Of a stretch of DNA of 64,000 nucleotides, positions 9,159 to 41,411 are shown in pieces. The position numbers were made by a program, and so were the translations under genes. The DNA lies in contig CAWJTV010000009.1 of NCBI GenBank assembly GCA_963845755.1, forward strand, positions 1 to 64,000, given 5' to 3'. Source of the DNA: an uncultured Planctomycetota bacterium (GTDB taxonomy: Bacteria; Planctomycetota; Planctomycetia; Isosphaerales; Isosphaeraceae). The stretch's first letter is position 1. Every line of letters begins with the position of its first letter. The notes beneath the pieces are model-generated. The model saw only the letters and a program-made list of their open reading frames with translations, did not search any database and was not told where the DNA came from.

Positions 9159-9307
9159 TAGAGCGCTCAACGGTTGGTCTGTACAAACAAGCATAATATT
9201 GATGGGATACAAGCCTGGAGCGCCAGCGAGTGAATTCCGGTGGGAATCCTCCATCTACTCGCTGGCGATTCGGGCTGGTATGCGCAATGCAAGAGTTAAG
9301 CGCTCTA
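9159..9307. mobile_element. Miniature inverted-repeat unit (TAGAGCG-end family) with REP-like hairpin interior
   Basis: Ends TAGAGCGCTCAAC / GTTAAGCGCTCTA (12/13 IR); internal inverted repeat CGCCAGCGAGT...ACTCGCTGGCG. Confidence 0.7.
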
Positions 9308-9560
9308 CAGCGGCAAACACTCGGGTTGCGCACGCGGTCGATATCGATCGGGAGACCCCCTCATCCGCCCTTCGGGCACCTTCTCCCCGGCGGGGAGAAG
9401 GGGAGGATCCGTCGCCCTCTCCCCCACGGTCCCCGTGGGAACGAGATCCAAATCCGCGGGATGTTCGAGACGTCGCGTGCCAGACCACCCCGGGTCCGGA
9501 CTCCCTCGTTCCCACGGTCCCCGTGGGAACGAGATCTCCCACCGATCGGCTGTGCGCACC
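9306..9560. repeat. Cluster of REP-like palindromes starting with a TAGAGCG-family B end
   Basis: TACAGCGGCAAACACTCGGGTTGCGCACGC at 9306; CCCTCATCCGCCCTTCGGGCACCTTCTCCCCGGCGGGGAGAAGGG; two copies of CCCACGGTCCCCGTGGGAACGAG (~9423, ~9511). Confidence 0.7.
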
Positions 9561-9569
9561 TTACATGGT

Positions 9570-10337
9570 TTACAGCTCGGCTCGAATCCGTCGCCGGCGG
9601 ACGCCCAGGATCAACCCTCCGCCTGCGCCCATCGTCATCAGGACCAGCGCCGATGGCTCGGGGACCGACTGTTGAGCGAAGAACCGCATATCGAAGTAAT
9701 TCGTGGCACCGCCGTCGTTGATGGCCCAGGTGTCGTTGGCCGTCCAGTTGCCCGGCGTGCCGTCGCCGTACCAGATCGTGTTGAGTGCGCTGCCGGTCAG
9801 CGGTGGAGTGACGGCGACGAACGGCCCCATGAATTGTCCGGGCGTCGTGGTGCTATAGCTGGAGCTCACCACGGCGGTCAGGCTGTCGGGGACGAGGGTC
9901 GGCGCGAAGAACCAGTCCACGCCGTAGGCGCCATTGCCGGGAAGCGGGACGTTCGATGCCTGAGTGGTGAATTCCGCGATCAAGGTGCCCGGTTCGTGCA
10001 GTCCACTATTGGGGTCGATCGGCCCGTCGTTCTTGTAGAGGTCCAGGGTATAGGTATCCACTTCCTTGGGACCGATTGAGGCGAACACGACCTGCACGTG
10101 GTCCAGGTAACGCTCGCTACCGGCAAACGTGATCTGGTTGCCCAGGTGATCGCCGTTGGGACGGTTCGGGGTCCCGTCGTTCTCGAACGGCACGAAGTCG
10201 TCGGAGTTGAGTCCGGTCACGTTGTAGATGGTGGAATCGGCTCTTGCAAAACCGAGAGACGCCGAAAACGCAACGCCGAGAACCAGAGACCGTGTGACGG
10301 CACCGATCCGGGATCGGCGCGAATCGGAGTACCTCAT
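9570..10337 (-). CDS. PEP-CTERM sorting-domain exported protein
   Basis: Signal peptide; C-terminal VPEPSALVLMTMGAGGGLILGVRRRR; GGAGG RBS. Confidence 0.88.
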   Translation of the reverse strand: MRYSDSRRSRIGAVTRSLVLGVAFSASLGFARADSTIYNVTGLNSDDFVPFENDGTPNRPNGDHLGNQITFAGSERYLDHVQVVFASIGPKEVDTYTLDLYKNDGPIDPNSGLHEPGTLIAEFTTQASNVPLPGNGAYGVDWFFAPTLVPDSLTAVVSSSYSTTTPGQFMGPFVAVTPPLTGSALNTIWYGDGTPGNWTANDTWAINDGGATNYFDMRFFAQQSVPEPSALVLMTMGAGGGLILGVRRRRIRAEL

Positions 10338-10521
10338 GATGGGGAACCTCCCAGGCAAACGGCCCCTGGTGTGAAGGAAGCGCACCGCGGGGCCGATCCC
10401 GGCGCGCTCCTCGGCGCAGCCTCGGCGTCACTCGCGCCGCGCGGATTCGGATCGCGCCGAGGAGGAGTCGCGAGTATTCGAGGCGCAGACTCGTCAGATT
10501 CGAGGGGAAGCGATATCCGGA

Positions 10522-12873
10522 TTATTTGATGGAAAGCGCGTCAGTTCCGGCAGGTGGATTCCGCGGATCGAGGACTCGTGCGGCCTCGTCACGGAATCGG
10601 AGGAGTTCTTCGCCGGATGCCGATCTTGCGGAGATCCAGGCGAGAGACCGGTCGTACCAGGACCGGGAGCCCGCGCGATCGCCGAGCTGATGGAGCGCCA
10701 TGGCCAGGAAGAGCCAATCGTAAGGGTCGCCGCCGGCGCGGAGCCGCATCGACTCCTCGAGCGCTGCGACGGCAGCCTTCGCGTCGCCGGCGCGGTACTG
10801 GGCCACGCCCAGGGTATTCCAGTAGTTCCCGGCCTTCGGGGCCAGCGTGACGGCTTCCCTGGCGATCCCGACGGCCAGTGCGGCGTCGGCGGGCGTTGAC
10901 CTGTCGGAGGTACCGGAGACCAGCATCCAGGCCAGGTTGTTGGGCACGACGGCGTCGCCGGGATCGCTGCGCACCACCTGGAGGAGGTTGTCCCGGAGCC
11001 GGAGGCGGACCTGTTCGGCCTCGCGGGCCTGGCCCAGGGACTCGAGCAAAGTAGCCAGCTCGGCCCGGAAATAGGTCAGGCAGATCAAGTAATCCCGCTC
11101 GTCGGGGAAATCGGCGACGAGACCTTCGCGCAGGGCGACCAGCCGTTCCAGGCAATCCTTTCGCGACGCCGGCGAACCGGTTTTCCGCAACGAGAGCAAC
11201 AGGTCGCCGTAAGTCAGGGCGAGCGCCACACGGAGGTCGCGGGCGTCGGGCGAGCCAGCGAGCAGCCCTCGGTAGAGATCGATGGACCGGCGGTAGGCGT
11301 CCTCGGCATGGGGCTCCTGGAGGATCATGCGGATGAATCCGATGCGATGATCGGCGGCGGCCACGATCACCTGCATCTCGGAATCGTCGCGATAGCGTCC
11401 AGCGATCGCTTCGTAGTAGCCGAGGGCCCTGCGGCAGAAGACCTGGTCGCGCAAGAGCTCGTCCTGGGCCGGCGCGGCGCCGGGCGTCGCGATTCGGGCC
11501 AGGGCCCGGTCGGCGATCTCGTCCCCGGCGAGGAAGCTGAAGCGGTGCGCCTGTCGCTCGCGCGATCGGGCCTCCTGCACCGCGTGCAAGGCCGAGCGTG
11601 TCCGCTGCTGCTCTTCCCAGAGGCGGACCATGCCGCCGGCCGCGACGAGGGTCGCCACGACCAGGATCCCCGCCCCGATCGCCGACGTCCGCCGGTGTCG
11701 TTGCGACCACCGCGCCAACCGCTCGGCAACGCTCGGTCGCCGGGCTCGGATCGGCCGCTGGTCGAGGAACCGCCCGAGATCGTCGGCCAGCTCTCGGGCC
11801 GTGGCATAGCGCCGCTCCGGCTCCTTGGCCATCGCCTTGCCGACGATCGTCTCCAGGTCGAGCGGGATTGTCGGATCGATCCTCCGCGGCGGCACCGGCT
11901 CGACGTGGGCGATCCGCCGGAGGAGGTCCTGACGGTCGACGCCATCGAACGACGGCCGCGCCGTGAGCAGCTCGTAAAGGGTCGCCCCGAGCGCGTAGAC
12001 GTCGGTGCGCGGGTCGAGGACACGGCCGCCGGCAGCCTGTTCGGGGCTCATGTAGCGGAGGGTCCCGAGCAGGTCGCCACTGTCCGTGAGGTCGCCCCGT
12101 CCCTGGAGGCGGGCCAGGCCGAAGTCGGTGACCCAGAGGTGGCCCAGGCCGTCAACCAGCAGGTTGCCGGGCTTGACATCGCGATGCAGCACGCCCAGCC
12201 CGTGCGCGTGCTCCAGCGCCTCGGCCGCCTGCATGGCGAGTCGGGCCGCCTCGCGCGGCGCGAACCGGCCGTACGTGCCGGCCCCGCCGCCGCGGTCCTC
12301 GCCTGGCTCGCGGAGCCGATCGGCCAGCGAGCGGCCCGCGATGAGCTGCATGGCATAGTAGTGTACGCCCCGGTCGCAGCCGACCGCGAAGATCGGCACG
12401 ATCTGGGGGTGGTGCAAGGCCGCCATGACCTGGGCCTCGATCCGGAACCGTGCGAGCTGCTTCGCGTCGAGTCCCGCCGTGACCGGGAGCACCTTCAAGG
12501 CGACGCGCCGGCCAAGCGAGACTTGCTCGGCCTCGTAGACGATCCCCATCCCGCCGCGGCCGATCTCGCGGACGATCCGGAACTCGCCCAGGGCCTCGAA
12601 CGCCTCTCCGGCCGACCCGATCAACCCCGGACTGGCCGGAGGGAGCGCGTGCAGCAATTGGAGCGCGGGGAGGACCTGGGGAAGGACTCCGCCGACCTGG
12701 GGATACCTCCGGACGAAGTCGTCGATGTCGGGAGCCTCACCACGCGACAGTTGCTCGAGGAACTCGTCGGCCGCCTGCGCCACCAGGGATGCGATCGATG
12801 CCGAGGGTGAGAGCGACATCGATCGGGAGAATAACGGCGGCAGCGGGGTGGCTGCGGTCAGGTGTCGATCCAC
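10522..12873 (-). CDS. Hanks-type Ser/Thr protein kinase with transmembrane helix and TPR region
   Basis: IGRGGMGIVY, VALKVL, HRDVKPGN, DFGLA, GTLRYMSPEQ, DVYALG; TM helix; TPR motifs NNLAWML and WNTLGVAQYRAG. Start is uncertain (GTG 12873 or ATG 12819). Confidence 0.92.
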   Translation of the reverse strand: MDRHLTAATPLPPLFSRSMSLSPSASIASLVAQAADEFLEQLSRGEAPDIDDFVRRYPQVGGVLPQVLPALQLLHALPPASPGLIGSAGEAFEALGEFRIVREIGRGGMGIVYEAEQVSLGRRVALKVLPVTAGLDAKQLARFRIEAQVMAALHHPQIVPIFAVGCDRGVHYYAMQLIAGRSLADRLREPGEDRGGGAGTYGRFAPREAARLAMQAAEALEHAHGLGVLHRDVKPGNLLVDGLGHLWVTDFGLARLQGRGDLTDSGDLLGTLRYMSPEQAAGGRVLDPRTDVYALGATLYELLTARPSFDGVDRQDLLRRIAHVEPVPPRRIDPTIPLDLETIVGKAMAKEPERRYATARELADDLGRFLDQRPIRARRPSVAERLARWSQRHRRTSAIGAGILVVATLVAAGGMVRLWEEQQRTRSALHAVQEARSRERQAHRFSFLAGDEIADRALARIATPGAAPAQDELLRDQVFCRRALGYYEAIAGRYRDDSEMQVIVAAADHRIGFIRMILQEPHAEDAYRRSIDLYRGLLAGSPDARDLRVALALTYGDLLLSLRKTGSPASRKDCLERLVALREGLVADFPDERDYLICLTYFRAELATLLESLGQAREAEQVRLRLRDNLLQVVRSDPGDAVVPNNLAWMLVSGTSDRSTPADAALAVGIAREAVTLAPKAGNYWNTLGVAQYRAGDAKAAVAALEESMRLRAGGDPYDWLFLAMALHQLGDRAGSRSWYDRSLAWISARSASGEELLRFRDEAARVLDPRNPPAGTDALSIK

Positions 12874-13520
12874 AGGTGAGACTCCGTCAAACCTTCGTCC
12901 AGGAGCAAGGCACGGAGATGCAGCAAGGCGCGCCCGTACCGCTTTCGCGCCGCGGCCGGCTCGATCCCGAGCCGGGCTCCGACCTCTTCGTATGACATCC
13001 CCTCGAACGTCCGCATTCCGAGGATGAGGCGGTCGGGCTCGGACAGCCGCTGGAGCACGGCATGCAGACGGTTCGCCGCGTCGCGCACCGCGGCCTGCTG
13101 GCTCGGCGTCGGCCCGGCCGCCGCGATCCGTCCGGCCGCGCCGGAAGTGCCGGACGAATAATCGCGATGGTTTGCCATCGACTGCTCGCGGCCGGGATCG
13201 CGACGGGCCGCCGACACGTGCCGGCGCAACTTCCCCACCCGCTGGATGGCCGTCCGGAATAGCCAGACTCGGAACGGCATCGGGCGGCGTCCCGCGAATT
13301 CGTCTAGCCGCTCCAGAACCTCCATCTGGGCGTCCTGGACCACGTCGGAGGGATCGATCCGGGCGCACAGCGACGGCCCGAGCCGCCGGGCAACTGCCCG
13401 ATGCAAGGCCGCACGGTGCCGACCAAAGAGCTCGTCGAAGGCGCGCGGATCACCCGCCCGAGCTCGCGAGACCAAGATGTGCGCCTCGTCGGTCGAGGCC
13501 GCGTTACGGTCTTCCGTCAT
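12858..13520 (-). CDS. ECF sigma-70 factor, planctomycete type, coupled to the kinase
   Basis: RARAGDPRAFDELF, RIDPSDVVQDA, FRVWL, TPSQQA, region 4 EGMSYEEVGARLGI..AARKRYGRAL; AGGAGG RBS. Confidence 0.9.
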   Translation of the reverse strand: MTEDRNAASTDEAHILVSRARAGDPRAFDELFGRHRAALHRAVARRLGPSLCARIDPSDVVQDAQMEVLERLDEFAGRRPMPFRVWLFRTAIQRVGKLRRHVSAARRDPGREQSMANHRDYSSGTSGAAGRIAAAGPTPSQQAAVRDAANRLHAVLQRLSEPDRLILGMRTFEGMSYEEVGARLGIEPAAARKRYGRALLHLRALLLDEGLTESHLWIDT

Positions 13521-13727
13521 CACGATCCTCCTGGAAGTATACCTCCCAAGACGATACGCGATGTGACATCCGAGCGTAAAGAATTCCAGAAGCAACCCGT
13601 GGGAGTGCGTCACGCGAACTGCGGGTCGGGAGAACCCGGTTGAATTCGTTCACGCGATGCTTCATGCTGATTCTCGTCGTCCCCTCGGATCACTTCCGCG
13701 CCCGGGGTCAATCGAAAGGAGCCATCC

Positions 13728-15290
13728 ATGAAGCGGAACCCCGCGTTCTCGGCTTGCCTGATTCTCGTGATCGCTGGTGGCCTCGCCGGGTTTCCCGATG
13801 TCGCCAGGGCCCAGAACCCCGCGCCGGGTCGAAAGTCACCGAACATCGTCTTCATCTTCAGCGACGATCATGCTTATCAGTCGATCAGCGCCTACAACGA
13901 CCCGCGACACTTGCTCGAGACACCGAACATCGATCGCCTGGCGAAGGAAGGGATGCGATTCGACCGCTGTATCGTGCCGAACTCGATTTGCGGGCCCAGC
14001 CGCGCCTCGATCCTGACCGGGAAATACTCCCACCTCAACGGCTTCTACAATAATACCAACAGCCGGTTCGACGGATCGCAGACCACATTTCCCAAGCGCC
14101 TGCAAGGCGCCGGATATCAGACGGCGATCATCGGCAAGTGGCACCTGGTCACCGACCCCACCGGATTCGACGAGTGGCACATCCTGCCGGGCCAGGGCGT
14201 CTACTACAACCCGCCGATGATCCATAACGGTCAGAAGGTCGAGCACCAGGGCTATACCACCGACATCATCACCGACCTGAGCCTCGACTGGCTGCGGCAT
14301 CGCGACAAGTCGAAGCCATTCCTGTTGATGTGCCAGCACAAGGCACCCCACCGCGAGTGGCTGCCGGCCCTCCGCCACCTGGGCCACAACGCGGATCGCA
14401 AGTTCCCCGAGCCGCCCACGCTCTTCGACGACTATACCGGGCGCGGCCTGGCCGAGCGCGACCAGGACATGACGATCGCGAAGACCATGAACGACGTCGA
14501 TGTCAAACTCACGCCTCCCAAGGTTTTCACGCCCGAGCAGCGGAAAGCCTGGGACGCCTATTACGAGCCGCGCAACGCCGAGTTCCGCAAGGCCCACCTC
14601 GAGGGCAAAGACCTGGTGAGATGGAAATATCAGCGCTACATGCACGACTACCTGGGCTGCGTCAAGGCGGTGGACGAATCCGTCGGCCGGCTGCTGAAAT
14701 TCCTCGACGACGAGAAGCTCGCTGAGGAGACGATCGTGGTCTACACGGCCGATCAGGGCTTCTACCTCGGCGAGCACGGCTGGTTCGACAAGCGCTGGAT
14801 CTTCGAGGAATCGCTACGGGCACCGCTGTTGGTCCGCTGGCCGGGCGTGACGAAAGCCGGGAGCACGAGCAAGCGCCTCGTCTCGAACATCGACTTCGCC
14901 GAGACCTTCCTGGAGGCGGCCGGCCTGCCGGTCCCGGGCGACATGCAAGGCCGGAGCCTCGTCCCGCTGCTCAAGGGACAGACGCCCGACGATTGGAGAA
15001 TCGCATTCTATTATCAGTACTACGAATATCCCGTGCCGCACCACGTCCGGCCGCATTATGGGGTGGTCACCGATCGCTACAAGCTCGTCCGCTTCGACCG
15101 GCCCGACATGGACGCCTGGGAACTCTTCGACCTCGAAAACGACCCGCACGAGCTGCGCAACGTGTACGGTGAGCCGGCATATCAAGCCGTCGTGGACGAC
15201 ATGAAGGTCAGGGTCGACCACCTGCGCACGGAGCTGAAAGTCCCGGCCGAGCCGCTCCGAGAGGCTTTTGGTAAACAGCCGTTGAAGTAA
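13728..15290 (+). CDS. Formylglycine-dependent sulfatase (S1), exported
   Basis: Signal peptide; [22 protein letters not shown] (CxPxR), [19 protein letters not shown]. Confidence 0.95.
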
Positions 15291-15307
15291 CCATCGCGGC
15301 GGAAAGC

Positions 15308-15490
15308 GAGATCGCCCCACAGTTGGGTGGCACACACTCGAAGCCTGCTCCCGAAGAACCCCCCCTTCGCTAAGGGGGGGACGGGAAACGGGCTTTTCCC
15401 GATCAATATCCCCCCCCTGCGAAGGGGGGGTTCGGGGGGGTGAATTCGCCGCGCCTCAGGGCGTGCGCAATGCGAAAGTTAATCGCTCTA
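15308..15490. mobile_element. Miniature unit (TAGAGCG-end family) with poly-C/poly-G REP doublet interior
   Basis: Right end GCGTGCGCAATGCGAAAGTTAATCGCTCTA; degenerate left end GAGATCGCCCCACAGTTGGGTGGCACACAC; interior has two CCCCCC(T)TG/CG..AAGGGGGGG palindromes. Confidence 0.65.
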
Positions 15491-17369
15491 CACGGCCGCG
15501 CCCGGCCCGTCAACCCCGGCCGGGACCGGCTCGGCAGGCGGGCGTGGTGAGCTTCGCCATCGAGAGCCGCGATTCCGGGGCTCGCGGAACGGAGGGACCC
15601 ACTCGACGAGACGGCAGAATGTGGGAAACGCCGCTTCATCCGGGGGGACAGCGGGATCTCCGGTCCTGCGGACAGCCGGCCCAGGCAGCGATTGAACGTC
15701 AACAGCGTTGCCGCGAACAGAACGGCGGCGAACCCGAGGTGGATCAGCCCCCAGACGATCGTCGCGAGCCGGGTATTCTCCACCACGGCGGACGGTCCGA
15801 TTCGCAGCTTCATGACGTCAACCGTCGCGAGCAAGGTCCCGTAAAACGGACTGCCGGCGATGAGGGGAATGGTCACCGGCCCCGGCGGCCCGAGCTGGGC
15901 GATGAGGACCGTCCAGCCGATCGTGAAGCCCAGGTAAATCGTGACGCAGAGCGCGACCGCCCGGCCCAGCCGGCTCACCCAGGTCGCCAGTGCCAGGCCC
16001 AGGCAGGCGATCGCCGCCACGTTCGCCACGATCGAGCCCAGTAACAGGGCATAACTCCCCCAGAACCCGCTGTCAAGGGCCAGTATGCTCGTCATCAGAG
16101 CGGGCCAGAACACCAAGGCCGGGAACCAACGGAAGCTTCCCCACCACTTTCCGACCAGGATCGAGCGCGTCGGGAGCGGAGTGGTGAGGAGCACGTCGAG
16201 GCTGCCGCGCACGCGCTCCTCGGCCAGGCTGGTTGCGGCACAGACGCTCAGCAGCAACAGCCCGATCGTGACGTGAAATGCGTTCATGATCTCGATCAAC
16301 TCTGGGTTGCCGGTCGGGTTGAGCGCATGTCGAAGCGCCAGCACGGACCAGAAGACACCGAGGGCCGCGTACAACAGCCAGGCGATGCGCAACATCCGCG
16401 ACGGCCGCATGCGGTGCCACTCTCGCCACAGGACTGGGTTGCCATCGAGCGATGGGCCGGGTAGGTGCGGCAGCCAGGCCGGATGGGGAATGCGCGGGAT
16501 ACTCAGACGGCGGCGTCTGGGCCGGGTCTCCGGCCGACCCGCCTGATCCAGAGCCACCCGGCGGATCCGCAGCGTCAACAGCCCCACGAGCCAGGCCGAG
16601 ATCGCCAGGCAGCCACCCAGGAAACCCAGATACGTCATCAAGTCGATCCGACCCGGGTTGGCATAGGGCGCGAAGTTGAGCTCAAACGGGTTCGTGTTCT
16701 GGATCCATTCCCAGAGCGACCCGTTGCTCGACCAGGGCAGAGGCCGTTGCAGCGACCACGCGACCAGCATCACGAGCAGCGGGAAGAGGATCCACAGCAG
16801 GATGATGAGATAGGTGAGCATCAAGACTTCATGGGTCTTGCGGCCCCAGACCGACAACGTCAAGGCCAGCGAGCAGCCCAGCACGGCGCAGCCGGTCGTC
16901 ACGAGGAACGAGCCGGCCAGCGCCATCGGGTCGATGCCGCCCAGCAGGCCCGAGATCGCCACGATCGGCAACACGCAGGCGACCAGGCCCAGTACCGGCA
17001 CCAGCCGCACGCCCAGCTTGCCCAGCACGATCTCGGCGTTGGAGAGGTCGGTCGCCAGCAGGTGATCGAGCGTGCACCGCGCCTTGTCCAGGCAGATGGC
17101 TCCGGCGGTGGCCGCGGGCGCGACCAGGAGCACCAGCGCCACCTCGATCGAGGAAATCGTCTTGTAAAGCGATTCGCCGAACCTCGCCAGCGCCTGGATC
17201 GTCGCCGTCTGGGTGGAACCGCCGAACCTCCGCTCGTTGTAATGGACGATCACCATCCCGACGAGGATCACGGCGACGAACCCGGCGCACGCGCATAGAG
17301 CTGCCAGCGCCGCGTGGTGATCAGCCACTCGTAGACGAAGACCGGTCCCGGTCCCACGCGTAATTGCAT
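15403..17369 (-). CDS. ABC-2-type permease with two permease repeats, paralogue 2 (frameshift ~17290; 3' end uncertain)
   Basis: MQLRVGPGPVFVYEWL..RRWQLY, then APAATAGAICLDKAR.TLDHLLATDLSNAEIVLGKL, NPVLWREW, LAEERVRGSLDVLLTTPL..RSILVGKW. Confidence 0.85.
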
Positions 17370-19219
17370 GCCAAGCTCCCCGCGGACGAGAATCGGGCAC
17401 TTCCCTCGTTGTTCGTTCCGTCGGGATCTTTCTTTCGCCGATGCGGTCCCTCAATAATCCGGCTCGAGCTCGTCGAATGGCGCCTTCCTCGCGCGCGGAT
17501 CGGGCGCATCGGCGTTTCCGAGATCCGGCCCAGGCAGTCGTCGAAGCTCCCGACCGTCACCGCGAACAGGGCCGCCGCGACGGCGCCGTGGATCACAATC
17601 CAGAGGAAGTTACCGCTCGAAACCGCCTCCGTGACGCCTAGCCCGACGTGTTGCTCCCGGGCGACGTTGACCGTGGCGAAGAACGGCCCGCAGAACGGAC
17701 TTCCCATCGAGAGTACCAGACTTGACGAGTCCCCTCTGCCAATAAAAGCGATCAGGATCAGCCAGCCGACCGAGAACCCGACATACGCGGTGACGCACAG
17801 GGCCACCGCTCGACCCAGCCGGCTTACCCAGGTCGCCAGCGCCAATCCCAGGCTGATGATCGCCGCGCCGTAGGCCGCGATCAGCGCCAGGAGCCCGAGA
17901 TACGCGAAGAAGTGACCGCTGCCCACGGCGAGCAAGCCGGCCGTGACGGCCGGCCAGATCAAGACATGACGGACCTGAAGGAAGGCGCCCAACCACTTGC
18001 CGGCCAGGATCGATCGAGTCGATAGCGGGGTGGACATCAGCACGTCCAGGCTGCCGCGCATGCGCTCCTCGGCCAGGCTGGTCGCGGCGCTGACGCTCAC
18101 GAGCAGCAGGCCCAGCCCGACCTGGAACAGGTTCATCGCCCCGATCGCTTCCGGCGCCATGCGTACCGGGAGCATGAGTCTCATCGTCAGCGCGATCCAT
18201 AGCACGCCGAGCGCCGAGTACAAGAACCACGCTACGCGCAGGAACCGCGACGGCCGCGACCGATGCCACTCCCGCCACAAGACCGGATTGCCGTCCAGCG
18301 ATGGGCCGGGTAGCACCGAGAACCGCAGCAGGCGGGGGAGACCGGGAACAGACCAGCCGCGCCGGGTCCTGGCCGCCGGCCGGCCGGCTTGCCGCAGCAC
18401 CACAGACCGAATCCGCAGCGTCGCCAGGCCCACGAGCAACCCGGAGATGCCCAGGCAGCCGCCCAGAAACCCCAGATAGTTCGTCCAGTCCACCTTGTTC
18501 GGGTCCGCATACGGTGCGTACGCGAGGTAGTAAGGGCTCGAGAACAAGGCGGATTCCCAGAGGGCCGGCATCGCCATCAGGGGAGGCGCGGATTGGAAGA
18601 TGAACGCGGCGATGGCCACCCACACCGGATTGAACAGCCAGAGGACCAGGATCAAATACGTGAGCATCAAAACTTCATGGGTCTTGCGGCCCCAGACCGA
18701 CAGGGTCATCGCCAGCGTGCAACCCAGCACCGCGCAGCCGATCACCACCAGGAACGAGCCGCCCATTGCCAGCGGGTCGATGCCCCCGAGCAGACTCGAG
18801 AGCGCCGTGATCGGTAGGACGCAGGCGATCAAGCCCAGCACCGGCGCCAGCCGCACGCTCAGTTTGCCCAGCACGATCTCGGCGTTCGAGAGGTCGGTGG
18901 CCAGCATGTGGTCGAGCGTGCCCCGCGCCTTGTCCAGGCAGACGGACCCGGCGGTGGCCGCCGGGGCCGCCAGCAGGACCAGCGTCAACTCGATGCTGAC
19001 GACGGTGATGTACAGGACCTCGCCGTACTCCGCCATCTGCTGGATCGAAACCCGCTGCTCCGGCAGGTTGGCGCGAACGGTGTTCTGCCAGACGATGATC
19101 ATTCCGATGAGCATCGCCCCGACGAACGCGGCACGCAGCGCGTAGAGCTGCCACCGTCGCGCGGCCGTGAGCCACTCGTAGACGAAGACCGGCCCCGGTC
19201 CGAATCGCAGCCGCACCAC
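17321..19219 (-). CDS. ABC-2-type permease with two permease repeats, paralogue 1
   Basis: GPGPVFVYEWLTAARRWQLY, DKARGTLDHMLATDLSNAEIVLGKL, EERMRGSLDVLMSTPL; many hydrophobic helices. Confidence 0.88.
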   Translation of the reverse strand: MVRLRFGPGPVFVYEWLTAARRWQLYALRAAFVGAMLIGMIIVWQNTVRANLPEQRVSIQQMAEYGEVLYITVVSIELTLVLLAAPAATAGSVCLDKARGTLDHMLATDLSNAEIVLGKLSVRLAPVLGLIACVLPITALSSLLGGIDPLAMGGSFLVVIGCAVLGCTLAMTLSVWGRKTHEVLMLTYLILVLWLFNPVWVAIAAFIFQSAPPLMAMPALWESALFSSPYYLAYAPYADPNKVDWTNYLGFLGGCLGISGLLVGLATLRIRSVVLRQAGRPAARTRRGWSVPGLPRLLRFSVLPGPSLDGNPVLWREWHRSRPSRFLRVAWFLYSALGVLWIALTMRLMLPVRMAPEAIGAMNLFQVGLGLLLVSVSAATSLAEERMRGSLDVLMSTPLSTRSILAGKWLGAFLQVRHVLIWPAVTAGLLAVGSGHFFAYLGLLALIAAYGAAIISLGLALATWVSRLGRAVALCVTAYVGFSVGWLILIAFIGRGDSSSLVLSMGSPFCGPFFATVNVAREQHVGLGVTEAVSSGNFLWIVIHGAVAAALFAVTVGSFDDCLGRISETPMRPIRARGRRHSTSSSRIIEGPHRRKKDPDGTNNEGSARFSSAGSLACNYAWDRDRSSSTSG

Positions 19220-20937: not shown

Positions 20938-20979
20938 GGAAACCGTGGTCGTTTCCGCCAGCGTCCCGGAATCGGGAAA

Positions 20980-30650: not shown

Positions 30651-30681
30651 AGGGCTGATCGTTTGCGTGGGATCCGGCAAA

Positions 30682-31399: not shown

Positions 31400-31522
31400 A
31401 TCCGTAGTCCGGGTATGGCAATGGATACGGGCCCCCGATCGGTCGGGCCCACGGGTGTGAGAGTCAATCGACCCCAAGATGCTGGCGGTGCCTATCGCGC
31501 ACCCCTGAGAGAGAGTTGATCG

Positions 31523-31921: not shown

Positions 31922-31995
31922 GAACCAAAGTCTTCGCCCGCGCGGCCAGACTCCACCCCGATCCACGGACCGCATCGCCCGAAGCCCTCGATTCC

Positions 31996-33036: not shown

Positions 33037-33208
33037 TGCGATTCCCCGGGCCTTCACCGGATCTGAGTCGCACCAGCCCGCTTCGCCGCATCGAGGATGG
33101 ACAGTCCCCGGACCTCGAGAAAAGGAAGTCGTCGCCGTGTCGAGACGCGACCGCGGTTCGCGTCGTTCAACCGCCCGAAATCATCGTCTTGTCGTCGAGG
33201 TCCCAGCC

Positions 33209-33445
33209 ATGGACACCGAATTGAGCCGAGTGATTGTGACGATCAGCGGGAGCTCTTCGACCGCTAGCGTTCATCACCGAGATTTCCCCGAAATCCGGGC
33301 GGAAGGCGGTTCGCCCCAGGAGGCGGCCTCCTATCTGATCAACCAGTTGACTCGAGCCCTGGATTCGGCACTGACCGACTGGCGGCGCGATCGAGTGAAC
33401 GAGGCGATCGCGGACGTGAAGGCGTTCGTCGATCAGCAATCCTAA
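33209..33445 (+). CDS. Small hypothetical protein (HicB-like alpha/beta pattern)
   Basis: 78 aa; VHHRDFPEIRAEGGSPQEAA; GAGG RBS. Confidence 0.6.
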   Translation: MDTELSRVIVTISGSSSTASVHHRDFPEIRAEGGSPQEAASYLINQLTRALDSALTDWRRDRVNEAIADVKAFVDQQS

Positions 33446-33471
33446 CTCATCAGGAGAGTCATCGCGCTGCG

Positions 33472-35037
33472 ATGTCGCTGCCCATGACCACCGAAACCGC
33501 CGAATCTCGGCCCGCATCCGGCCCGAAGGGGTTGGTGCGCGAGCTGGGCACGATCGACGCCACCATGATCGTCATGGGGGCGATGATCGGCTCGGGGATC
33601 TTCATCACCTCGGCCGAATCGGCCCGGCTGGTCGGAACGCCCGGCTTGCTGCTGGGGGTGTGGGCCGTCTCCGGGTTGATGACGATTCTGGGATCGCTCT
33701 GCGCCGCCGAGATCGCGGCGATGATGCCTCGCGCCGGGGGTCAGTACGTCTTCCTCCGCGAGGCATACAGTCCCCTGTTCGGTTTCCTGTTCGGCTGGGC
33801 CATGTTCCTGGTCGTGCAGACCGGGACGATCGCGGCGGTCTCGGTCGCGTTCGCCAAGTTCCTCGGCGTCTTCTTTCCCGCGATCACGGCCGATCTCTAT
33901 GTCGTGGAACCGATCCACCTGGGCATTCTGGCCGTCAGCCTCTCGAGACAACAGCTCGTTGCCGTCGTCCTGATCGCCTTCCTGACGGCCGTGAACATGC
34001 TGGGCCTGAAACTCGGCAAGTGGATCCAGAACACGTTCACCTTCACCAAGACGGCCGCATTGCTGGGCCTGATCGTGGTCGGGCTCTGGGTGGGTAGCAA
34101 CCGCGAGAGCGCGGCCTGGACATCGTCGTGGTGGAACCCGGCGGCCAACGGTTGGGATTCGAAGACGGCACTCCCGGGCATGCCCTTGGAGGGTCCGACC
34201 GCTCTGCTCCTCTTGTTCGGGCTGGCCATGATCGGGCCGCTGTTCTCCCAGTCGGCATGGAACAACGTGACGTTCACCGGCTCGGAAACCCGCGACCCGG
34301 GCCGCACGTTTCCCCGCGCGATGATCCTCGGCTGTTCCACCGTGGTCCTGCTTTACTTCCTGGCGAACATCGCCTACATCGTGACTCTTCCCCTGGGCGG
34401 AATCCAGGGGGCGAAGAACGACCGGGTCGGCACGGCCACGCTCGAGGCCATCATGGGCCCGCGCGGCGAAGCGATCATGGCCGGCGCGATCATGATCTCG
34501 ACGTTCGGCTGCGTCAACGGCCTGATCCTGGCCGGGGCGCGCGTCTATTATGCCATGGCCCGCGACGCCCTCTTCTTCCGTAGTGTCGCCACGACGAATC
34601 GCTTCCATGTGCCGGCGGTTGCGCTGCTCGCGCAGGGGCTCTGGGCGGCGCTGCTGGCCCTCCCCGTGACGGTCTCGCACAAGCCCGTGCCGGGGATGAT
34701 CAAGTACGGCGACCACTACTACGGGAACCTCTACAATGAGCTCCTGGATTATGTGGTCCCCGTCGATGTTTGCTTCTACGCACTGTTTGTCGGCGGCGTG
34801 ATCGCCCTGCGGCGGAAACTGCCCGATTTGCCCCGACCGTACCGGGCGGTCGGTTACCCGATCCCCGTCCTGATCTACCTGGGCCTGGCGCTCCTGCTGG
34901 TGCTCGATTTCATCTACCTGAAGCCCTTGCGGGCCGGGATGGGCTATCTCATCGTCCTGGCGGGCATCCCGGTTTACCTGGTCTGGTCGCGGCGGTCGGC
35001 CGCGAGATCGGCCGCTCTCGAGACGATAGCGAGTTGA
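33472..35037 (+). CDS. APC-family amino acid permease
   Basis: MIGSGIF, AEIAAMMPRAGGQYVFLREAY, GARVYYAMARD, RPYRAVGYP; ~12 TM segments. Confidence 0.93.
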   Translation: MSLPMTTETAESRPASGPKGLVRELGTIDATMIVMGAMIGSGIFITSAESARLVGTPGLLLGVWAVSGLMTILGSLCAAEIAAMMPRAGGQYVFLREAYSPLFGFLFGWAMFLVVQTGTIAAVSVAFAKFLGVFFPAITADLYVVEPIHLGILAVSLSRQQLVAVVLIAFLTAVNMLGLKLGKWIQNTFTFTKTAALLGLIVVGLWVGSNRESAAWTSSWWNPAANGWDSKTALPGMPLEGPTALLLLFGLAMIGPLFSQSAWNNVTFTGSETRDPGRTFPRAMILGCSTVVLLYFLANIAYIVTLPLGGIQGAKNDRVGTATLEAIMGPRGEAIMAGAIMISTFGCVNGLILAGARVYYAMARDALFFRSVATTNRFHVPAVALLAQGLWAALLALPVTVSHKPVPGMIKYGDHYYGNLYNELLDYVVPVDVCFYALFVGGVIALRRKLPDLPRPYRAVGYPIPVLIYLGLALLLVLDFIYLKPLRAGMGYLIVLAGIPVYLVWSRRSAARSAALETIAS

Positions 35038-35046
35038 GCATCCCCG

Positions 35047-37064
35047 ATGATCGTAAGTTGGAACTGGCTGACCGACTACCTCCGGCTCGACATGGCGGTC
35101 GAGGTCTTGACCGAGCGATTGGCCCTCACGGGCCTGAACCTCGAATCGATCGAGGACGTCGGCGGCGACATCGCCATCGACCTGGAGGTCACGAGCAACC
35201 GCCCGGATTGCCTGGGTCACCTGGGCGTCGCCCGGGAGATCTCCGTCCTGTTCGACAAGAATCTCTGCGTCTCCGACCCGCGGCCGGCGACGATGGAGAC
35301 GCCGGTCGAGACCCAGACCGGGGTCACCATCGAAGACGGCGACCTGTGCCCGAGGTTCACCGCGCGGGTGGTCTCGGGCGTGACCGTGGGCGAGAGTCCC
35401 TGGTGGCTCCGCAAGCGGCTGGAGACGATCGGCGTCAAGGCGATCAGCAACATCGTCAACGTGACCAACTACGTCATGTTCGAGTGTGGTCAGCCCTTGC
35501 ACGCCTACGACCTCGACCGGCTTGCCGACCGCCGGCTGATCGTCCGACCGCGCGATCCGGCGAGAAGCTCACGGCGATCAATAACAAGATCTATGATCTC
35601 CAGACCGAGATGCTCGTGATCGCGGATGCCGAGCGTCCCGTGGGGCTCGCGGGCGTCATGGGCGGGCTCGAGACCGAGATTGCCCACGACACGACCAACG
35701 TCCTGATCGAGGCCGCTCAGTTCGATGCCATGTCGGTGCGGCGGACCTCGCGGGCGCTGGGCCTGTTCAGTCCGTCGAGCTTCCGGTTCGAGCGGCCATT
35801 GGATCCCGAGGGCACCGAGTGGGCCAGTCGTCGTTGCGCCGAGCTGATCCGGGAAGTCGGCGGCGGGACGCTCCATCCCGGAGTGATCGATGTCGGCCGG
35901 CGCCCGGCGGAACGAACGACGATCACGTTGCGGCTCGGCCAGATCGAGCGAATCCTGGGGATCCGCATCGACCGGGCGGCGGCCGCGCGGATCCTCAAAG
36001 CGCTGGGATTGGAGTCCCTCGGTGAGGACGAGCGGTCGCTGACCGTCCGTCCGCCGAGCTGGCGGAGCGACCTGGAGCGCGAGATCGACCTGATCGAGGA
36101 GGTCGCGCGGATCCACGGTTACGAACACATCCCCGAGGACCGGGCGGTCCCGCTGACGAGCGCCCGCGCGGCCAGCACGAGCGGGTCGAGTCGGTCGTCC
36201 GCGATTTCCTGACCGGCGCCGGCTTCGACGAAGCCGTGACATTCAGCCTGGTCGAAGAGCGGCTTGGTGCCCCCCTCCAGCCCGGTCCCGCTTCGCCGCC
36301 GTTGCGCGTGGACCATTCCAGCCGCAAGCGCGAGAGTGCCCTGCGCCAGAGCCTGGTGCCCAGCCTGCTGTCGGTCCGTCTCCACAACGAGTCGCACGGT
36401 CAGTTCGACGCCGAGCTCTTCGAGATCGCCGACGTCTACCTCCCCAGGAACGACCGGAAACTTCCCGACGAACCGACGCGGCTGGCGATCCTCGGCAATC
36501 GCGATTTCCGGGCCCTCAAGGGGGTCGTCGAGGGCCTGTTGCGACGACTGCACGCCGGCAGCGCATTGATCGCACGTCCGGCCGAGATCGCGCTGTTTGC
36601 CCCCGGGCGGGCCGCCGAGTTACTCCTGGGAGACACCCACCTGGGTTACCTGGGCGAGATCGACCCCAGCCAGCTCCAGGCGTTCGAGCTTCGCGAAGCG
36701 TGCGCGGCGGCCGAGCTGGAGTTCGGTGTCCTATTACAAGAGGCGCGACTGGTGGCGCAGCATCATCCTCTGCCACCATTCCCCGCCGTCGTGCGCGATC
36801 TCTCGCTGGAACTGGCGCAAGATTTGCCCTGGGGGGAGTTGTCGGAAACCGTCGTGCGAGCCGCCGGCCCGAGCTTCGAAATCGGTCCAGTACCTGGATA
36901 CGTTTCGAGGGGGAAACCTGCCGGAGGGCCAGCAGAGCGTCCATTTCAGCATGGTGTTTCGGCACCCGGAGCGGACCCTGACCAGCGAGGAAGTCGAAGA
37001 TGCCGTCCGGTCGGTCGTGGCGGGATGTGAGGCTCGGTTCCGGGCGAAGCTGCGTTCTCGCTGA
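35047..37064 (+). CDS. pheT: Phenylalanine-tRNA ligase beta subunit, short form (frameshifts ~35550, ~36165, ~36880)
   Basis: DLEVTSNRPDCLGHLGVARE, NYVMFECGQPLHAYD, GLAGVMGG, PPSWRSDLEREIDLIEEVARIHGY, LRQSLVPSLL, PAVVRDLS, ERTLTSEEV, across four reading-frame segments. Confidence 0.93.
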
Positions 37065-37298
37065 GGCGCTTCACGAATCAGATGCGTACCCCCCGGCGCC
37101 GGCGCGGCGCAGTGCCCAACCCGAGCGTGGAGGCGCTCCAGGGCCGTTCACCAGATAACAGGTGGAATAGCAGGTGTAGCAACCGTACACTACATTCATC
37201 AACGTCAATTCAATAAATAAAATATTCCAATATTTTCATTATATTAGTTCTGTAATGCAATCCGTCCGTGAAGCACTCTAGCCCTCGAGGACCAACCT

Positions 37299-38867
37299 GT
37301 GAACCCGCTCAAAGAATGGCGATCGTGGGTCCTGGTGCTGCTCCTGGTCGGGCCGGTGCTCGTGTACATGGGCCTGGGGATGCTCTGGCTCTGGGAGCAC
37401 GGCTGGGTCATCTTGAGCGTCGCCACGGGACTGTGGGTGATCACGGGGATTGTATTCTCGGTGCTGGCGGCCCGGTGGACGCGGTCGACCCACCCGATGA
37501 TGCCCCCGCTGGACTGGGAAGCGCCCAGACCTTCGGGCCGCTCGATCGCGATGCCTGGAAGCTCGTGCAGGATGCGGCCGATCAAGGGGAGAGCCAGACG
37601 TTCGAGGCCCTGCTGGAGGCCGATGCCTACATCAATTCGGGCCGGCAACTCTTCCAGCGCCTGGCCGTACATTATCATCCCCTGGCGGCCAATCCGATCG
37701 ACGACGTCCCGCTCGTCGAGCTCTTGGCCGCACTGGAGCTCGCCGCGGAGGACCTCACGCGGCTCTGCCGTCAGATCCCTGGCGGCGACCTGGTCACGCT
37801 TGCCCATTACCGGAAGGCCGTCCAGGTTGCCGGCTACATTTCCCGGGCCAACGACCTCTACTCGTATCTCCTGCCGTTCCTCAGTCCCGTCGGCGGCCTG
37901 GCCCGGTGGGGCTCCCGGGAGTGGATCGTGAAGCCGGCCTGGAAGTCGATGCAGCAGAACATGTTGCGCTGGTTCTATCGGGCCTACCTCAACCGGCTGG
38001 GAGCCCACCTGATCGAGTTGTTGAGCGGACGGCTGGCCATCGGCGCCGAGAGGTACCGGCGATTGACCCGCAAGGCGGCACGTGGCGTCCGAGGCGGAGA
38101 CGGAAGGCACGCAGCCGTTGACCATCAGCGTGGCCGGGAGCCATGAGTCGGGGAAGTCGCCGCTGGTGGCCCGGATCCGGGAGGTCTGTGCCGGCGATCT
38201 GACGCTACTCAAGGCGCGCCTGGCCGGTCTCGCGGTCGAGCCGGAACTGCTCGACCAGCTCCGCGATGCGAAATGGGTCGAGGCGCCCGACTACACGACC
38301 TGGACCGATTCCGAGGGCCGCCGGGACCGCGCCAAACGCCAGGCCGCCGTCGAGGCGGCCGTCGACGGAGACTTGCTCGTCCTGGTGATCGACGGCCGAC
38401 AGAAGAGCGATCAGGCCGACGTGGCGTTCGCCCAGGCGTGGGACCGCTGGTTCATCGAGCACCCACGCGTCGAGGCCCCGCCGAGCCTGGTCGTGATCAC
38501 CGGCGTGGAGGGCGCCGAGTTCGGCAACGGCTGGCAACCCCCCTATGACTGGACCGCCGGTACGGGCGCCCGCGAGATCGCCGTCCGCGCCCGCATCGAC
38601 GCCCTGCGTGCGATCCTGCCGCCGTCGTTCGCCGAGTTCGTCGCCGTCGGGCTCTCCGATCAACACCTTCACGGCGTGTTCGAGTACGTCCTGCCGGCGC
38701 TGGTGACCCAGTTGCATCGCGCCGAGCGGACGGCCCTGCTCCGCCGGCTCCACGAGTTGGGCGAACGGTCGAAAGTCGGACGTCTTGTCCGCCAGCTCGG
38801 CAAGCAAGGCCGGGCTGTCTGGAGCGGCCTCAGGGCCCGGCGCAAGACGCCGTCCGCATCGCCCTGA
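37299..38867 (+). CDS. Membrane-anchored P-loop GTPase-like protein (frameshifts ~37530, ~38085)
   Basis: Two N-terminal TM helices; Walker-A-like VAGSHESGKS; DLLVLVIDGR. Confidence 0.6.
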
Positions 38868-39171
38868 ACCCGCCGGCGCGACCTGGCGGGCGAACGGGTC
38901 GCGAGAACTCATCCTGGTTTGGATTACACGTCCCCGATGTCCTCGGTCGAACCCCCCTACCCTCACTGGGGTCGGTTTCTTTCTTTGGATGGAGACCTGG
39001 CCTGGGAGCTGATGAACGCCGTTCTGGGCCGAGTCATCACGGCTCGTTGATTGTGACGCGCTTTCTTTCAAACCGGCAAGCGATTTGCTGATATCTCGAA
39101 TCAAAGCAATCCGACCGGCGACTTCCGCCGGACGATTGATCTCAATTGGGCTCTTGCCAGGAGGACGCATC

Positions 39172-39714
39172 GTGGATATCGACAAGCGCGAGAAGAAAGT
39201 CGACCTGCCGCCCAAGGGCAGCCGCAATCCCGACCCCATCACCGACGCGCCGGGCTCGCATCCCATCGAAACCGGCATCGGGGCCGCTGTGGCCGGGGCC
39301 GCCAGCGGAGTGGCTGTCGGCGCGGTCACGGGCCCCGTCGGTGCCGCTGTCGGTGCGGCCGTGGGCGCCGTCGCCGGTGGCTATGCCGGCAAGGGGGTCG
39401 GCGAGCTGATCGACCCGACGACCGAGGACAACTGGCTCCGCGACAATTTTAGTTCGCGTCCCTACGTGCATCCGGGGGATACGTTCGAGACGTATGAGCC
39501 CGCCTATCGCTATGGAGCCGAGGGCGAGCTGAATTTCCCGGAGATGGACTTCGACGCGATCGACGATAAGCTCGAGAACAAGTGGTACGACAAGGGAGCC
39601 GTGATTCCGTGGGAGCACGCCCGCGGGGCCGTCAAGGACTCCTACGAGCGTGCTCGTCAGATCCGCAGGGAACGGGCGGAAGCGGCCCTCGCTGAGCCGG
39701 TCCTGGAAGACTGA
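39172..39714 (+). CDS. Glycine-zipper hypothetical protein, copy 1
   Basis: AGGAGG RBS + GTG; NPDPITDAPGSHP.ETGIGA...GPVGAAVGAAVGAVAGGYAGK; YEPAYRYG. Confidence 0.85.
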   Translation: MDIDKREKKVDLPPKGSRNPDPITDAPGSHPIETGIGAAVAGAASGVAVGAVTGPVGAAVGAAVGAVAGGYAGKGVGELIDPTTEDNWLRDNFSSRPYVHPGDTFETYEPAYRYGAEGELNFPEMDFDAIDDKLENKWYDKGAVIPWEHARGAVKDSYERARQIRRERAEAALAEPVLED

Positions 39715-39737
39715 AGAACGACGACGAAGACGCAAAG

Positions 39738-39782
39738 AGCCGCCCTCCCGGGTCATCCCGGGTGGCGCGGCTTTTTTCGTTT
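39738..39782 (+). terminator. Intrinsic terminator (duplicated at ~54155-54200)
   Basis: GAGCCGCCCTCCCGGG-TCAT-CCCGGGTGGCGCGGC followed by TTTTTTCGTTT. Confidence 0.7.
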
Positions 39783-40166
39783 GACGGGGCGAGACGCCGT
39801 CTTATGCCTTGACGATGGAACCATTAGCCCTACGCCCGCCCCTGGAGTCTCCTCAGTGCATGGCGAGCCGCTACATCCTTGCACGGGGTGGGGACACAGG
39901 GACACAGGATGGGGAAACACAATGCGCCCTCGTTTGCCGCCCCATGCCAAGAAACAAGAAACGAAGTTTGACCCCAGGTCCTCCTATAACCGTGCTCACC
40001 CGGCCCATCGCCACGGTACCTGCTGTCCCGGCAAAAGCACCGAGCCTCAACTCCGCCGCCACGCCTCGGCGATGACCGTCCACGATTCCTCTCCGGACTC
40101 TAAATCGAGGAAGAAAGCCTTCGAGATTGCCGATTCGATGCCCCGGAGCCATCCCCTGATTGCCGA

Positions 40167-40355
40167 TCAATCCTCAGCCGGCGTCGCGGGCGGGCTGGTG
40201 GGCGCCTGACCGGGAGTCGGCTCGGGGTGGGCCGGGAACGGTGATTGCGGCGGCTTCGGCTTCGGAATCTCCGGGAAGTCCGTCGGAGGTGTCGAAGGCA
40301 TCTCCGGCTTGTCGGGCACCGGGATCGCGTCCGGTGCGGGTTTGTCGGGCATCAT
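40167..40355 (-). CDS. Small proline-rich protein
   Basis: GAGGAGG RBS; 62 aa MMPDKPAPDAIPVPDKPEMP... Confidence 0.55.
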   Translation of the reverse strand: MMPDKPAPDAIPVPDKPEMPSTPPTDFPEIPKPKPPQSPFPAHPEPTPGQAPTSPPATPAED

Positions 40356-40435
40356 TCGTCCCTCCTCAAACACCGCGGGCCGGGTGTGGCCCCGGCCCGC
40401 TGCGTCGAACTGATATCGGTAATCGGTTGGTCGTA

Positions 40436-40633
40436 TCACTCGGTGGCGTCGTGGATCTTCCTCTTCGCCGCGTCGCCCGCCTGCTCGATCTTGTCGCCGG
40501 CCTGCTGGGCCTTGTCCTTCATCCAGTCCGCCGCCTTTCCGGCTTCCTGGCCGACCTTCCGCCCGGCCTCGTCGGCCTTCTCGGCGACCTTGTGACCGGC
40601 GTCCTTGATCTTCTGCTCGATGGTCTCAGCCAT
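40436..40633 (-). CDS. Small LEA/CsbD-like hydrophilic stress protein
   Basis: AAGAGG-like RBS region; A/K/D/E-rich 11-mer periodicity (KIKDAGHKVAE, KADEAGRKVGQ, KAQQAGDKIEQ). Confidence 0.75.
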   Translation of the reverse strand: MAETIEQKIKDAGHKVAEKADEAGRKVGQEAGKAADWMKDKAQQAGDKIEQAGDAAKRKIHDATE

Positions 40634-40890
40634 GGGAAATCTCCTTGATATGGGTCCTCTCCGAAGCGGAGGACGATGAGTGGAATAAACCGCAAACCCC
40701 GTGCCATCCGATCGTCGAGACGAAACCACCTTGTTGGAGGGTGCTGACAGGGCATGGCGCGGTTGCCACTTGCCGCGATGACCCGGGCACGCTCACGGTT
40801 CGAACTCCGCCTTCAGAACGGAACGTGGCATCAAATTTACAGAAAAATGATCATATGTAGATATTTAAGTATTGCAACTCGTCTTGGAGC

Positions 40891-41411
40891 TAGAGCGCGT
40901 AACGATTGCATTGCGCACGCGCCCGCCGCAGCTAGGGGGAACGATGTCCGGCGGCGGCCCGAAGGGTCGCAGGAACGGCCCCGACAGACGGTAACATGCC
41001 ACACTGTTGGGGCCGTTCCCGCGGCCCTTCAGGCCGCAGAAAATCGGCTGACAGAGTGTGCGCAACCCATCTGTTATGCGCTCTAGACCGGCAAAATCAC
41101 TAATAGAGCATCATCAGAAGGACCGATTGATCCGGGTTATCATTTGGCCGAAGGGTCTCCTGGGTCTGACCTGCCAATATCCACCCACCAATGCAGTTGC
41201 CTGGGCGACTGTGCAAACTGGGTGATTTGCAGCCCAGGACCCTAACGGTCTCATGGCCAATCAATTGAGATTTGTCGGTCTAGAGCGCTTAACGCTTGAA
41301 TGAAGATCGCCGGACGGAGCCGGCTCCCACAAAATGACGTTGGTCCGGCCGGAAGTCCGGGTGTAGGAGTCTGTCCCCCAACCGTCAGCCACCCAAGCGT
41401 TAATCGCTCTA
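40891..41411. mobile_element. Tandem array of three miniature inverted-repeat units sharing TA junctions
   Basis: 40891-41085 (TAGAGCGCGTAAC/GTTATGCGCTCTA), 41084-41282 (TAGACCGGCAAAATC/GATTTGTCGGTCTA), 41281-41411 (TAGAGCGCTTAACGCTTG/CAAGCGTTAATCGCTCTA, 17/18). Confidence 0.75.

Follow-up and report, generated by a model that had tools for sequence, protein, structure and literature searches.

Miniature elements in the window

The stretch of DNA considered here (the window) comprises 64,000 nucleotides, positions 1–64,000 of contig C9 (CAWJTV010000009.1) in the assembly GCA_963845755.1 of an uncultured planctomycete from the family Isosphaeraceae, and contains several small units with similar inverted ends, which very probably are miniature transposable elements with inverted repeats (MITEs) related to insertion sequences (ISs) of the IS630 family. 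The whole assembly, designated G000, amounts to 14.27 Mb in 49 contigs with a G+C content of 64% and is 88% complete; G001 denotes a sister genome of the same genus.

Two recurrent end types of about 30 bp, A and B, had been described in the initial annotation of this DNA, which regarded complete units as pairs of one A and one B enclosing unrelated palindromic interiors. Its coordinates and match counts were reproduced exactly by direct sequence comparison: on the reverse strand, the sequences that end at 15490 and at 9307 each agree with end A at 25 of 30 positions, and end B is matched at 21 of 30 positions at 9159 and at 22 of 30 at both 9306 and 15308. The conserved end, about 30 nt long, consists of TA followed by GAGCGCTTAACGGTTGGGTTGCGCAC and contains the small palindromes AGCGCT and TGCGCA. 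Its core, TAGAGCGNTNAAC, taken with no more than one mismatch, was found 7 times in the window at 0.31 expected, and none of 100 shuffled sequences reached this number. Thus, the recurrence of the ends is real, but their separateness is not, since A and B are identical to each other at 23 of 30 positions and represent a single imperfect terminal inverted repeat in two versions.

The first unit, of 149 bp, occupies positions 9159–9307 and has ends of the TA + GAGCG... kind, the left one degenerate and B-like and the right one A-like; its paralog at C29:170490–170638 is 85% identical. Nested in this unit is a TA-flanked hairpin mini-element of 73 bp (9208–9280) with the sequence TA CAAGCC...GCCAGCGAGTG / CACTCGCTGGC...GGCTGG TA. 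Directly adjoining position 9307, with a TA in common, is the left portion of another, decayed unit (9306–9430; E value of 1.3 with the end profile described below). The right end of this decayed unit could not be placed confidently, a candidate near 9578 being undetected by the profile; positions 9305–9429 show 78–80% identity to units of G001, and the same abutting arrangement recurs at locus L072 of G001, where the ends stand at 168, 323 and 503.

The unit of 183 bp at 15308–15490 belongs to a family of about 192 bp and carries poly-C/poly-G inverted hairpins; its left end is B-like, with the TA decayed to GA, and its right end is A-like. Three abutting elements with a single TA between each make up the region 40891–41411. 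The first of them, a 195-bp MITE (40891–41085) with A on the left and B on the right, is a deletion derivative of a family of about 321 bp and includes a remnant of the right end of a serine-recombinase element (40976–41014), which makes up the inner stem, together with the loop, in the hairpin noticed in this unit earlier. The second, also of 195 bp (41086–41280), is a MITE with the ends GACCGRCAAA... that goes back to another IS of the IS630 family, and sits in a TA between units of the GAGCG type. The third, a 131-bp MITE (41281–41411), resembles the common end over the first 20 nt or so only and has paralogs at C15:63070–63205 and C34:716477–716612 with 88–92% identity.

Census of ends, insertion sites and distribution

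In the whole genome, the core with up to one mismatch gave 169 matches, 24 of them exact, at about 70 expected by chance (scaled from 0.31 per 64 kb). Many of these matches are probably fortuitous, and the core was dropped as a census tool; since so short a motif was too weak, a 38-nt profile was built instead, seeded by 105 ends that also bear a second block similar to TTGCGCAC. It detected 320 ends in G000 at E ≤ 10, 264 at E ≤ 1 and 183 at E ≤ 0.01. The information content of the profile is high over positions 1 to about 30 and close to zero outside them. TA stands at positions 1–2 in 130 of the 183 best ends, and the preceding base is a pyrimidine in 171.

The 264 ends found at E ≤ 1 are divided between the strands almost equally (129 plus and 135 minus), and where neighbours have less than 3 kb between them, 77 pairs are convergent, 11 divergent and 7 tandem. 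Two of the convergent pairs are formed by abutting units with a common TA, which leaves 75 units of 119–2293 bp; 67 short ones (119–528 bp) are non-coding and dispersed over many contigs. The earlier description of the units as non-autonomous elements with inverted repeats at their borders and TA on either side is supported. Pairing of A with B predominates among the short units without being exclusive: 41 of the 67 carry A+B, 17 carry B+B, 2 carry A+A and 7 are unclassified, these counts not being independent because the members of a family share ancestry.

A search for empty TA sites in relatives had been proposed in the initial annotation, and one orthologous and one paralogous site of this kind were found. 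At C11:994602–994793 of G000, the filled site reads ...GGTCCATCC TA (unit) TA GGAGAGGGTCGTTCGA..., and the collinear site on contig C13 of G001 (locus L087) is empty and reads ...GGTCCATCC TG GGAGGCAGTCGTTCGA.... Within G000, the unit at C42:22664–22857 has a paralogous site on C20, in which the flanks are exactly 2 nt (CA) apart. As the flanks of the empty sites are separated by 2 nt, the insertion was precise and was accompanied by duplication of 2 bp. TA is the consensus of this duplication; CA and TG differ from it by one substitution each. No usable G001 ortholog was available for the three loci of the window, the flanks being not collinear or not conserved, and two of three further G001 loci (L083 and L085) gave no informative empty site, the third being L087.

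The taxonomic distribution was followed using a 28-nt end pattern with up to two mismatches in genomes many of which are incomplete. It gave 143 matches in G000 and 129 in G001; in other genera of the family, 44, 19 and 12 matches were found in three and 1–3 in four more. Altogether, 8 of the 18 other genomes examined within the family have the pattern, as against none of 12 from other families of the class, many genomes of the whole set being incomplete. The reversed pattern, used as a control, gave no match in any genome.

These data bear on the possibility that the 30-mers are protein-binding or regulatory sites of the host and that the units are not mobile at all. In fact, the units are located between genes, the two small palindromes of the ends would suit such a role, and all units fold as long, very stable hairpins with z-scores from −3.4 to −11.7 using RNA parameters and from −2.5 to −6.8 using DNA parameters. 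However, the presence/absence polymorphism with a 2-bp duplication, the number of copies varying from 0 to 143 between related genomes and the occurrence of a transposase gene between the same ends (see below) all speak for mobility, and units kept at orthologous places from genus to genus are the opposite of what the data show. Such an explanation is extremely improbable.

Related insertion sequences of the IS630 family

The search of G000 with the Pfam family DDE_3 gave 41 matches. None of them lies in the window, for which the initial annotation had noted no cognate enzyme next to any unit, and those of contig C9 are found at 242–320 kb. Enclosing ends were sought around 36 matches, the other five being second fragments of genes already listed, and convergent profile ends surround the transposase match at C6:56031–57043 and C6:39238–40250 only. 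A search for a long copy with the same ends around a transposase or recombinase had been suggested in the initial annotation; the two places found are frameshifted copies of an IS630-family IS. They are about 1013–1019 bp long, TA-bounded and placed in different outer flanks (one copy is C6:56026–57044). The end located 5' of the gene, TAGAGCGCCGAACGGTTGGATGGCATACG, is B-like (left), and that located 3' of it, TAGAGCCGCCTTACGTTTGCATTGCATACG, is A-like (right). The products match HTH_Tnp_IS630 (E 2e-8), HTH_32 and DDE_3 (E 3e-25).

Relatives with 54–80% identity were found in Singulisphaera sp. GP187, in an Isosphaeraceae metagenome-assembled genome (MAG) and in other Planctomycetes MAGs, and one (L027, 78% identity) belongs to a record labelled as a Solirubrobacteraceae MAG. 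They sit in ISs of 1011–1022 bp, and 10 of 11 of these have both profile ends (E from 3.5e-8 to 0.07), only one end being detected in L028. ISs with TA + GAGCG... ends recognised by the MITE profile are also present in genome G006. A single open frame of 314–333 codons is preserved in six relatives (L026, which is the copy of Singulisphaera sp. GP187, L027 and L029–L032); the frame of L028 comprises 322 codons but its C-terminus is altered, and that of L035 is broken. In the seven closest ISs, the 5' end is B-like (..TTGGATGGC..) and the 3' end A-like (..TTGCATAGC..). The remaining four, constituting a more distant clade with 54–57% identity, have B-like ends on both sides, and it is their 3' end, TAGAGCGGTTCACGATTGGGTTGCGCACAAG, that the MITE profile matches best. 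The B-like left and A-like right ends of the ISs account for the A/B asymmetry of MITEs.

Eight units of the census are longer than 1 kb (1.4–2.3 kb). They were considered as autonomous forms and rejected in this capacity, since each is an ordinary MITE split by a foreign element: three by an IS4-like element with a DDE_Tnp_1 transposase, three by a serine-recombinase element, one by an IS5-like element (also DDE_Tnp_1) and one by an IS3-like element.

The only product of the serine-recombinase element is a large serine recombinase of 527 aa, in which Resolvase, Recombinase and Zn_ribbon_recom domains were recognised; the element has its own inverted ends of about 17 nt, CCCCAACAGNGTGGCAT. Six copies of 1996–2001 bp were found, at C42:185482–187479, C11:819395–821391, C11:827485–829482, C13:234430–236430, C18:9669–11667 and C20:3141–5136. 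All of them occupy the same hairpin motif inside MITEs of interior cluster 1 (the clusters are described below), and this site is empty in uninterrupted MITEs. The copies are 99.3–99.8% identical, whereas the MITE arms around them have median identities of 62–67%, which indicates independent, recent and site-specific insertions into old MITEs. Judging from these sequences, the element has the appearance of a minimal mobile unit that chooses a specific site and was active recently. Three units of 2225–2293 bp have profile ends and enclose the recombinase, so that they might be taken for the autonomous element whose recombinase moves the small units. However, the separate ends of this element, its single target inside MITEs and the difference in identity between copies and arms contradict such a role, and the TA duplication together with ends matching those of IS630-family ISs points to a DDE enzyme. 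It is hardly credible that the recombinase moves the units.

The origin of the ends had been attributed to IS5 (IS427 group) or IS630. The second part of this suggestion is supported, as IS630-family ISs carry these ends, and the first is not. Derivation from an IS5 (IS427-group) or PIF/Harbinger-like element might seem attractive because the ends begin with GAG beside TA/CTAG and because the unit C34:774308–775777 encloses a DDE_Tnp_1 transposase. Nevertheless, this unit is a MITE of the 193-bp type split by insertion, with arms matching uninterrupted MITEs, and both types of DDE_Tnp_1 elements are nested in MITEs; the presence of the ends in IS630-family ISs of several genomes and the duplication of 2 bp also disagree with such an origin, the probability of which we consider negligible.

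It may be concluded with considerable confidence that the units constitute several MITE families having the ends of one IS630-type IS and inserting at TA. In the features tested they correspond to IS630-derived MITEs: the ends match, the TA duplication is of 2 bp, and the units are small, non-coding and multi-copy. In the IS630 family, the N-terminal domain of the transposase attaches to the inverted repeats by two helix-turn-helix (HTH) motifs, and the element is cut out and inserted at TA, which becomes duplicated (PMC2170065). By this mechanism, an IS630-family transposase would act in trans, binding the MITE ends and cutting the unit out, and the excised unit would be pasted into a TA, preferably with a pyrimidine just before it, the TA being duplicated. 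Several non-coding families with different interiors have these ends in common and would have the enzyme in common as well. Their interiors would diverge through deletion or duplication between internal hairpins, through nesting of other TA-targeting mini-elements and through the entry of different mobile elements with later deletion; the order of these events is the presumed one.

A number of findings weigh against this conclusion. In neither empty site is the dinucleotide TA itself, and a convergent partner inside 3 kb is missing for 110 of the 264 ends. A frameshift at the point where the DNA-binding part joins the catalytic one is common to both C6 copies of the IS, the second copy has two more frame-breaking indels, and G000, the assembly of which is incomplete and fragmented as given above, yielded no cognate transposase whose frame is unbroken. 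Several positions distinguish the ends of the IS from those of the MITEs, and on the right the C6 IS scores only E 1.3–2.3 with the MITE profile. No two MITE copies are identical, which gives no sign of current activity, and the hairpin module of 9208–9280 occurs outside GAGCG ends too.

Among the records covered by literature searches, none dealt with MITEs in Isosphaeraceae or Singulisphaera, and the IS may already be catalogued in ISfinder.

Interior families and nested elements

Single-linkage clustering of the 75 interiors using BLAST gave 13 clusters (33, 24, 4, 3, 2 and 2 members and 7 singletons), which confirms that several unrelated interiors stand behind the same ends. The four units of the window belong to four different clusters (9159 to cluster 4, 15308 to cluster 0, 40891 to cluster 1 and 41281 to cluster 3), and their interiors are indeed mutually unrelated. 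Each interior is a stable multi-copy family, mostly tied to the GAGCG ends. Among 55 loci with the interior of the 15308 type, 32 are inside a pair of ends, 16 near an end and 7 without any end; the corresponding numbers are 20, 9 and 1 for the 40891 type (30 loci), 3, 5 and 1 for the 41281 type (9 loci), and 2, 4 and 6 for the 9159 type (12 loci). The median pairwise identities in subfamilies are 85–95%, and the youngest subfamily (192 bp) has a median of 94.8% and a maximum of 98.4%.

Poly-C/poly-G hairpins were counted genome-wide as a candidate for an independent family of repetitive extragenic palindromes (REPs). Of 75 such hairpins, 39 are in pairs of ends, 23 are within 200 bp of an end and only 13 are elsewhere, and the candidate was rejected. 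The scan of the window with Rfam revealed no family at its gathering score. Transposases of the Y1 type (IS200/IS605 or RAYT) gave 10 matches in G000, none of them on C9.

Differences between the interiors find an explanation in nesting and deletion, without a new principle of transposition. The family of about 321 bp has length variants of 146, 195, 250, 279 and 396 bp, distinguished by deletions or duplications between short GC hairpins in the interior. Alignment of the unit 40891–41085 with eight members of this family showed that the arms are common and the centre is replaced; about 38 bp of the replaced centre are identical to the right end of the serine-recombinase element of about 2.0 kb, which presumably was inserted there and then lost by deletion except for this remnant. 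This right-end motif occurs 7 times in the genome, six times at recombinase elements, and the copy at 40976–41014 is the only one without the gene.

Nesting is exemplified by the unit 9159–9307. A strict pattern of the 9208–9280 core has 11 copies in G000: three are near profile ends, a fourth (C15) is beside an end with the core motif, three (C5:33471, C11:1085975 and C42:37631) are inside another inverted repeat, GGCTCATGGGCC..., and the remaining ones have other contexts, with TA always on both sides. The hairpin core flanked by TA and free of GAGCG ends was found at L066 and L067 of G001 and on C2, C3, C22 and C25 of G000. Of 20 loci with this core fetched from G001, 16 have both GAGCG ends 149–155 bp apart, two have one end and two have none. 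The simplest reading is that a TA-targeting mini-element was nested in a MITE of the GAGCG type and the composite was then amplified. Elements with GGCTCATGGGCC ends form a small family of about 170 bp, having 7 end copies in the genome and enclosing a core of the same 9208–9280 type.

On the basis of such units, the initial annotation proposed a modular vehicle, possibly undescribed, the ends of which would regularly take up different REP or hairpin cargos, exchange them and spread them. The diversity of interiors within the same ends, the recombinase-element fragment in 40891–41085 and the 9208–9280 hairpin, which exists bare, in another type of inverted repeat and in a composite that is multi-copy in G001, are in favour of this proposal, and the Y1 transposases could include REP-associated enzymes. 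On the other hand, the large interior families are bound to their ends (48 of 55, 29 of 30 and 8 of 9 loci, as well as 62 of 75 hairpins), the recombinase fragment is single-copy, and no exchange of interiors between two families of the GAGCG type was seen. Since the 9208–9280 module is itself TA-flanked, its presence can be put down to the usual nesting of TA-targeting elements within each other; in plants, nested and multimeric MITEs are amply documented (PMC5172404). Similarity confined to the ends is the pattern known for Stowaway and mariner-like elements (PMC3660474), and the design can hardly be called undescribed. Thus, a kernel of the capture idea survives in the 9159–9307 composite, its novelty does not, and a vehicle that regularly captures and exchanges cargos is improbable.

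The preferred reading, that of MITE families with the ends of an IS630-type IS, may be compared with several known systems. RUP (repeat unit of pneumococcus) of Streptococcus pneumoniae, related to IS630-Spn1, is also a small non-coding repeat with ends matching an IS630-family IS, inserts at TA and often lands in or beside other mobile elements (PMC2229807). It differs in being one 107-bp family with contiguous inverted repeats of 9 bp, whereas at least six multi-copy families of 119–528 bp with a common end of about 30 nt and nested composites were found in the planctomycete. Stowaway MITEs of rice comprise many TA-inserting families that have little except the termini in common with their source of transposase, the mariner-like Osmar elements; these are eukaryotic, and cross-mobilisation of the MITEs by that source was shown experimentally (PMC3660474), while here it would be deduced from sequence. 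[quoted passage not shown] REPs and REPINs, connected with RAYT/Y1 enzymes, are likewise short GC-rich palindromes or doublets between genes, but have neither such terminal inverted repeats nor TA duplication; the palindromes considered here are inside units bounded by terminal inverted repeats and mostly not free, the one free hairpin being TA-flanked. The system represents a bacterial counterpart of Stowaway/mariner and a larger, multi-family analogue of RUP/IS630-Spn1.

The interpretation as IS630-type MITEs explains a conspicuous class of repeats in the very large genomes of Isosphaeraceae-type planctomycetes and names the likely enzyme. The profile and the target rule (YTAR, with TA duplicated) can be used in annotation for masking.

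Other mobile elements gather at these MITEs. The IS4-like element with DDE_Tnp_1 has 7 copies with 97–100% identity (C11:1005523–1007062, C11:1359032, C3:8694, C34:124485, C9:226017, C37:134466 and C6:76474); five of them are within 300 bp of a MITE end and three split a recognisable MITE, which suggests that this element prefers the palindromic MITE interior. A second IS630-family IS, of 1417 bp, has 8 copies with 98.6–100% identity and the ends GACCGACAATCC... / GACCGACAATCCTCAATTGAG; it is apparently young. The ends of the MITE 41086–41280 resemble those of this IS, from which it was derived. Two copies of the IS and this MITE sit in a TA adjoining MITE ends of the GAGCG type, the IS being found in the same kind of junction at C20:5242–6660 and beside C20:208198–208199. 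As an element of the GAGCG type starts with G, its insertion after C gives CTAG at the border, and two abutting units give the palindrome GCGCTC-TA-GAGCGC. IS630 itself prefers CTAG. Such MITE junctions may be preferred targets.

A broader reading, tentative and in our opinion rather doubtful when all its parts are taken together, is that MITEs serve first as landing pads and then as vehicles: the YTAG junction formed by each insertion would attract further TA-targeting elements (for instance, the 73-bp mini-element with its hairpin and the second family of IS630 type), internal hairpins would be a specific target of the 2.0-kb recombinase element and a frequent target of the IS4-like element, and at least one composite, with outer ends and nested hairpin, would later have been amplified as a whole in G001. 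If it were so, the ends would disperse captured modules in a limited sense, and the interiors would have been built by serial capture. The minimal recombinase element with its target inside MITEs and the hot spots at MITE junctions are more unusual than the MITEs themselves and may deserve more attention.

A possible solo decayed end, a weak match to the profile (E 0.4), is located in the window at 37247–37280 on the minus strand. Positions 9340–9560, beside the decayed unit, contain GC-rich hairpin repeats, such as CGTTCCCACGGTCCCCGTGGGAACGAG (twice) and CCTTCTCCCCGGCGGGGAGAAGG, with many matches in G001. A strikingly A+T-rich stretch of 60 bp (40830–40890), contrasting with the overall composition of the genome, lies directly upstream of the MITE cluster 40891–41411.

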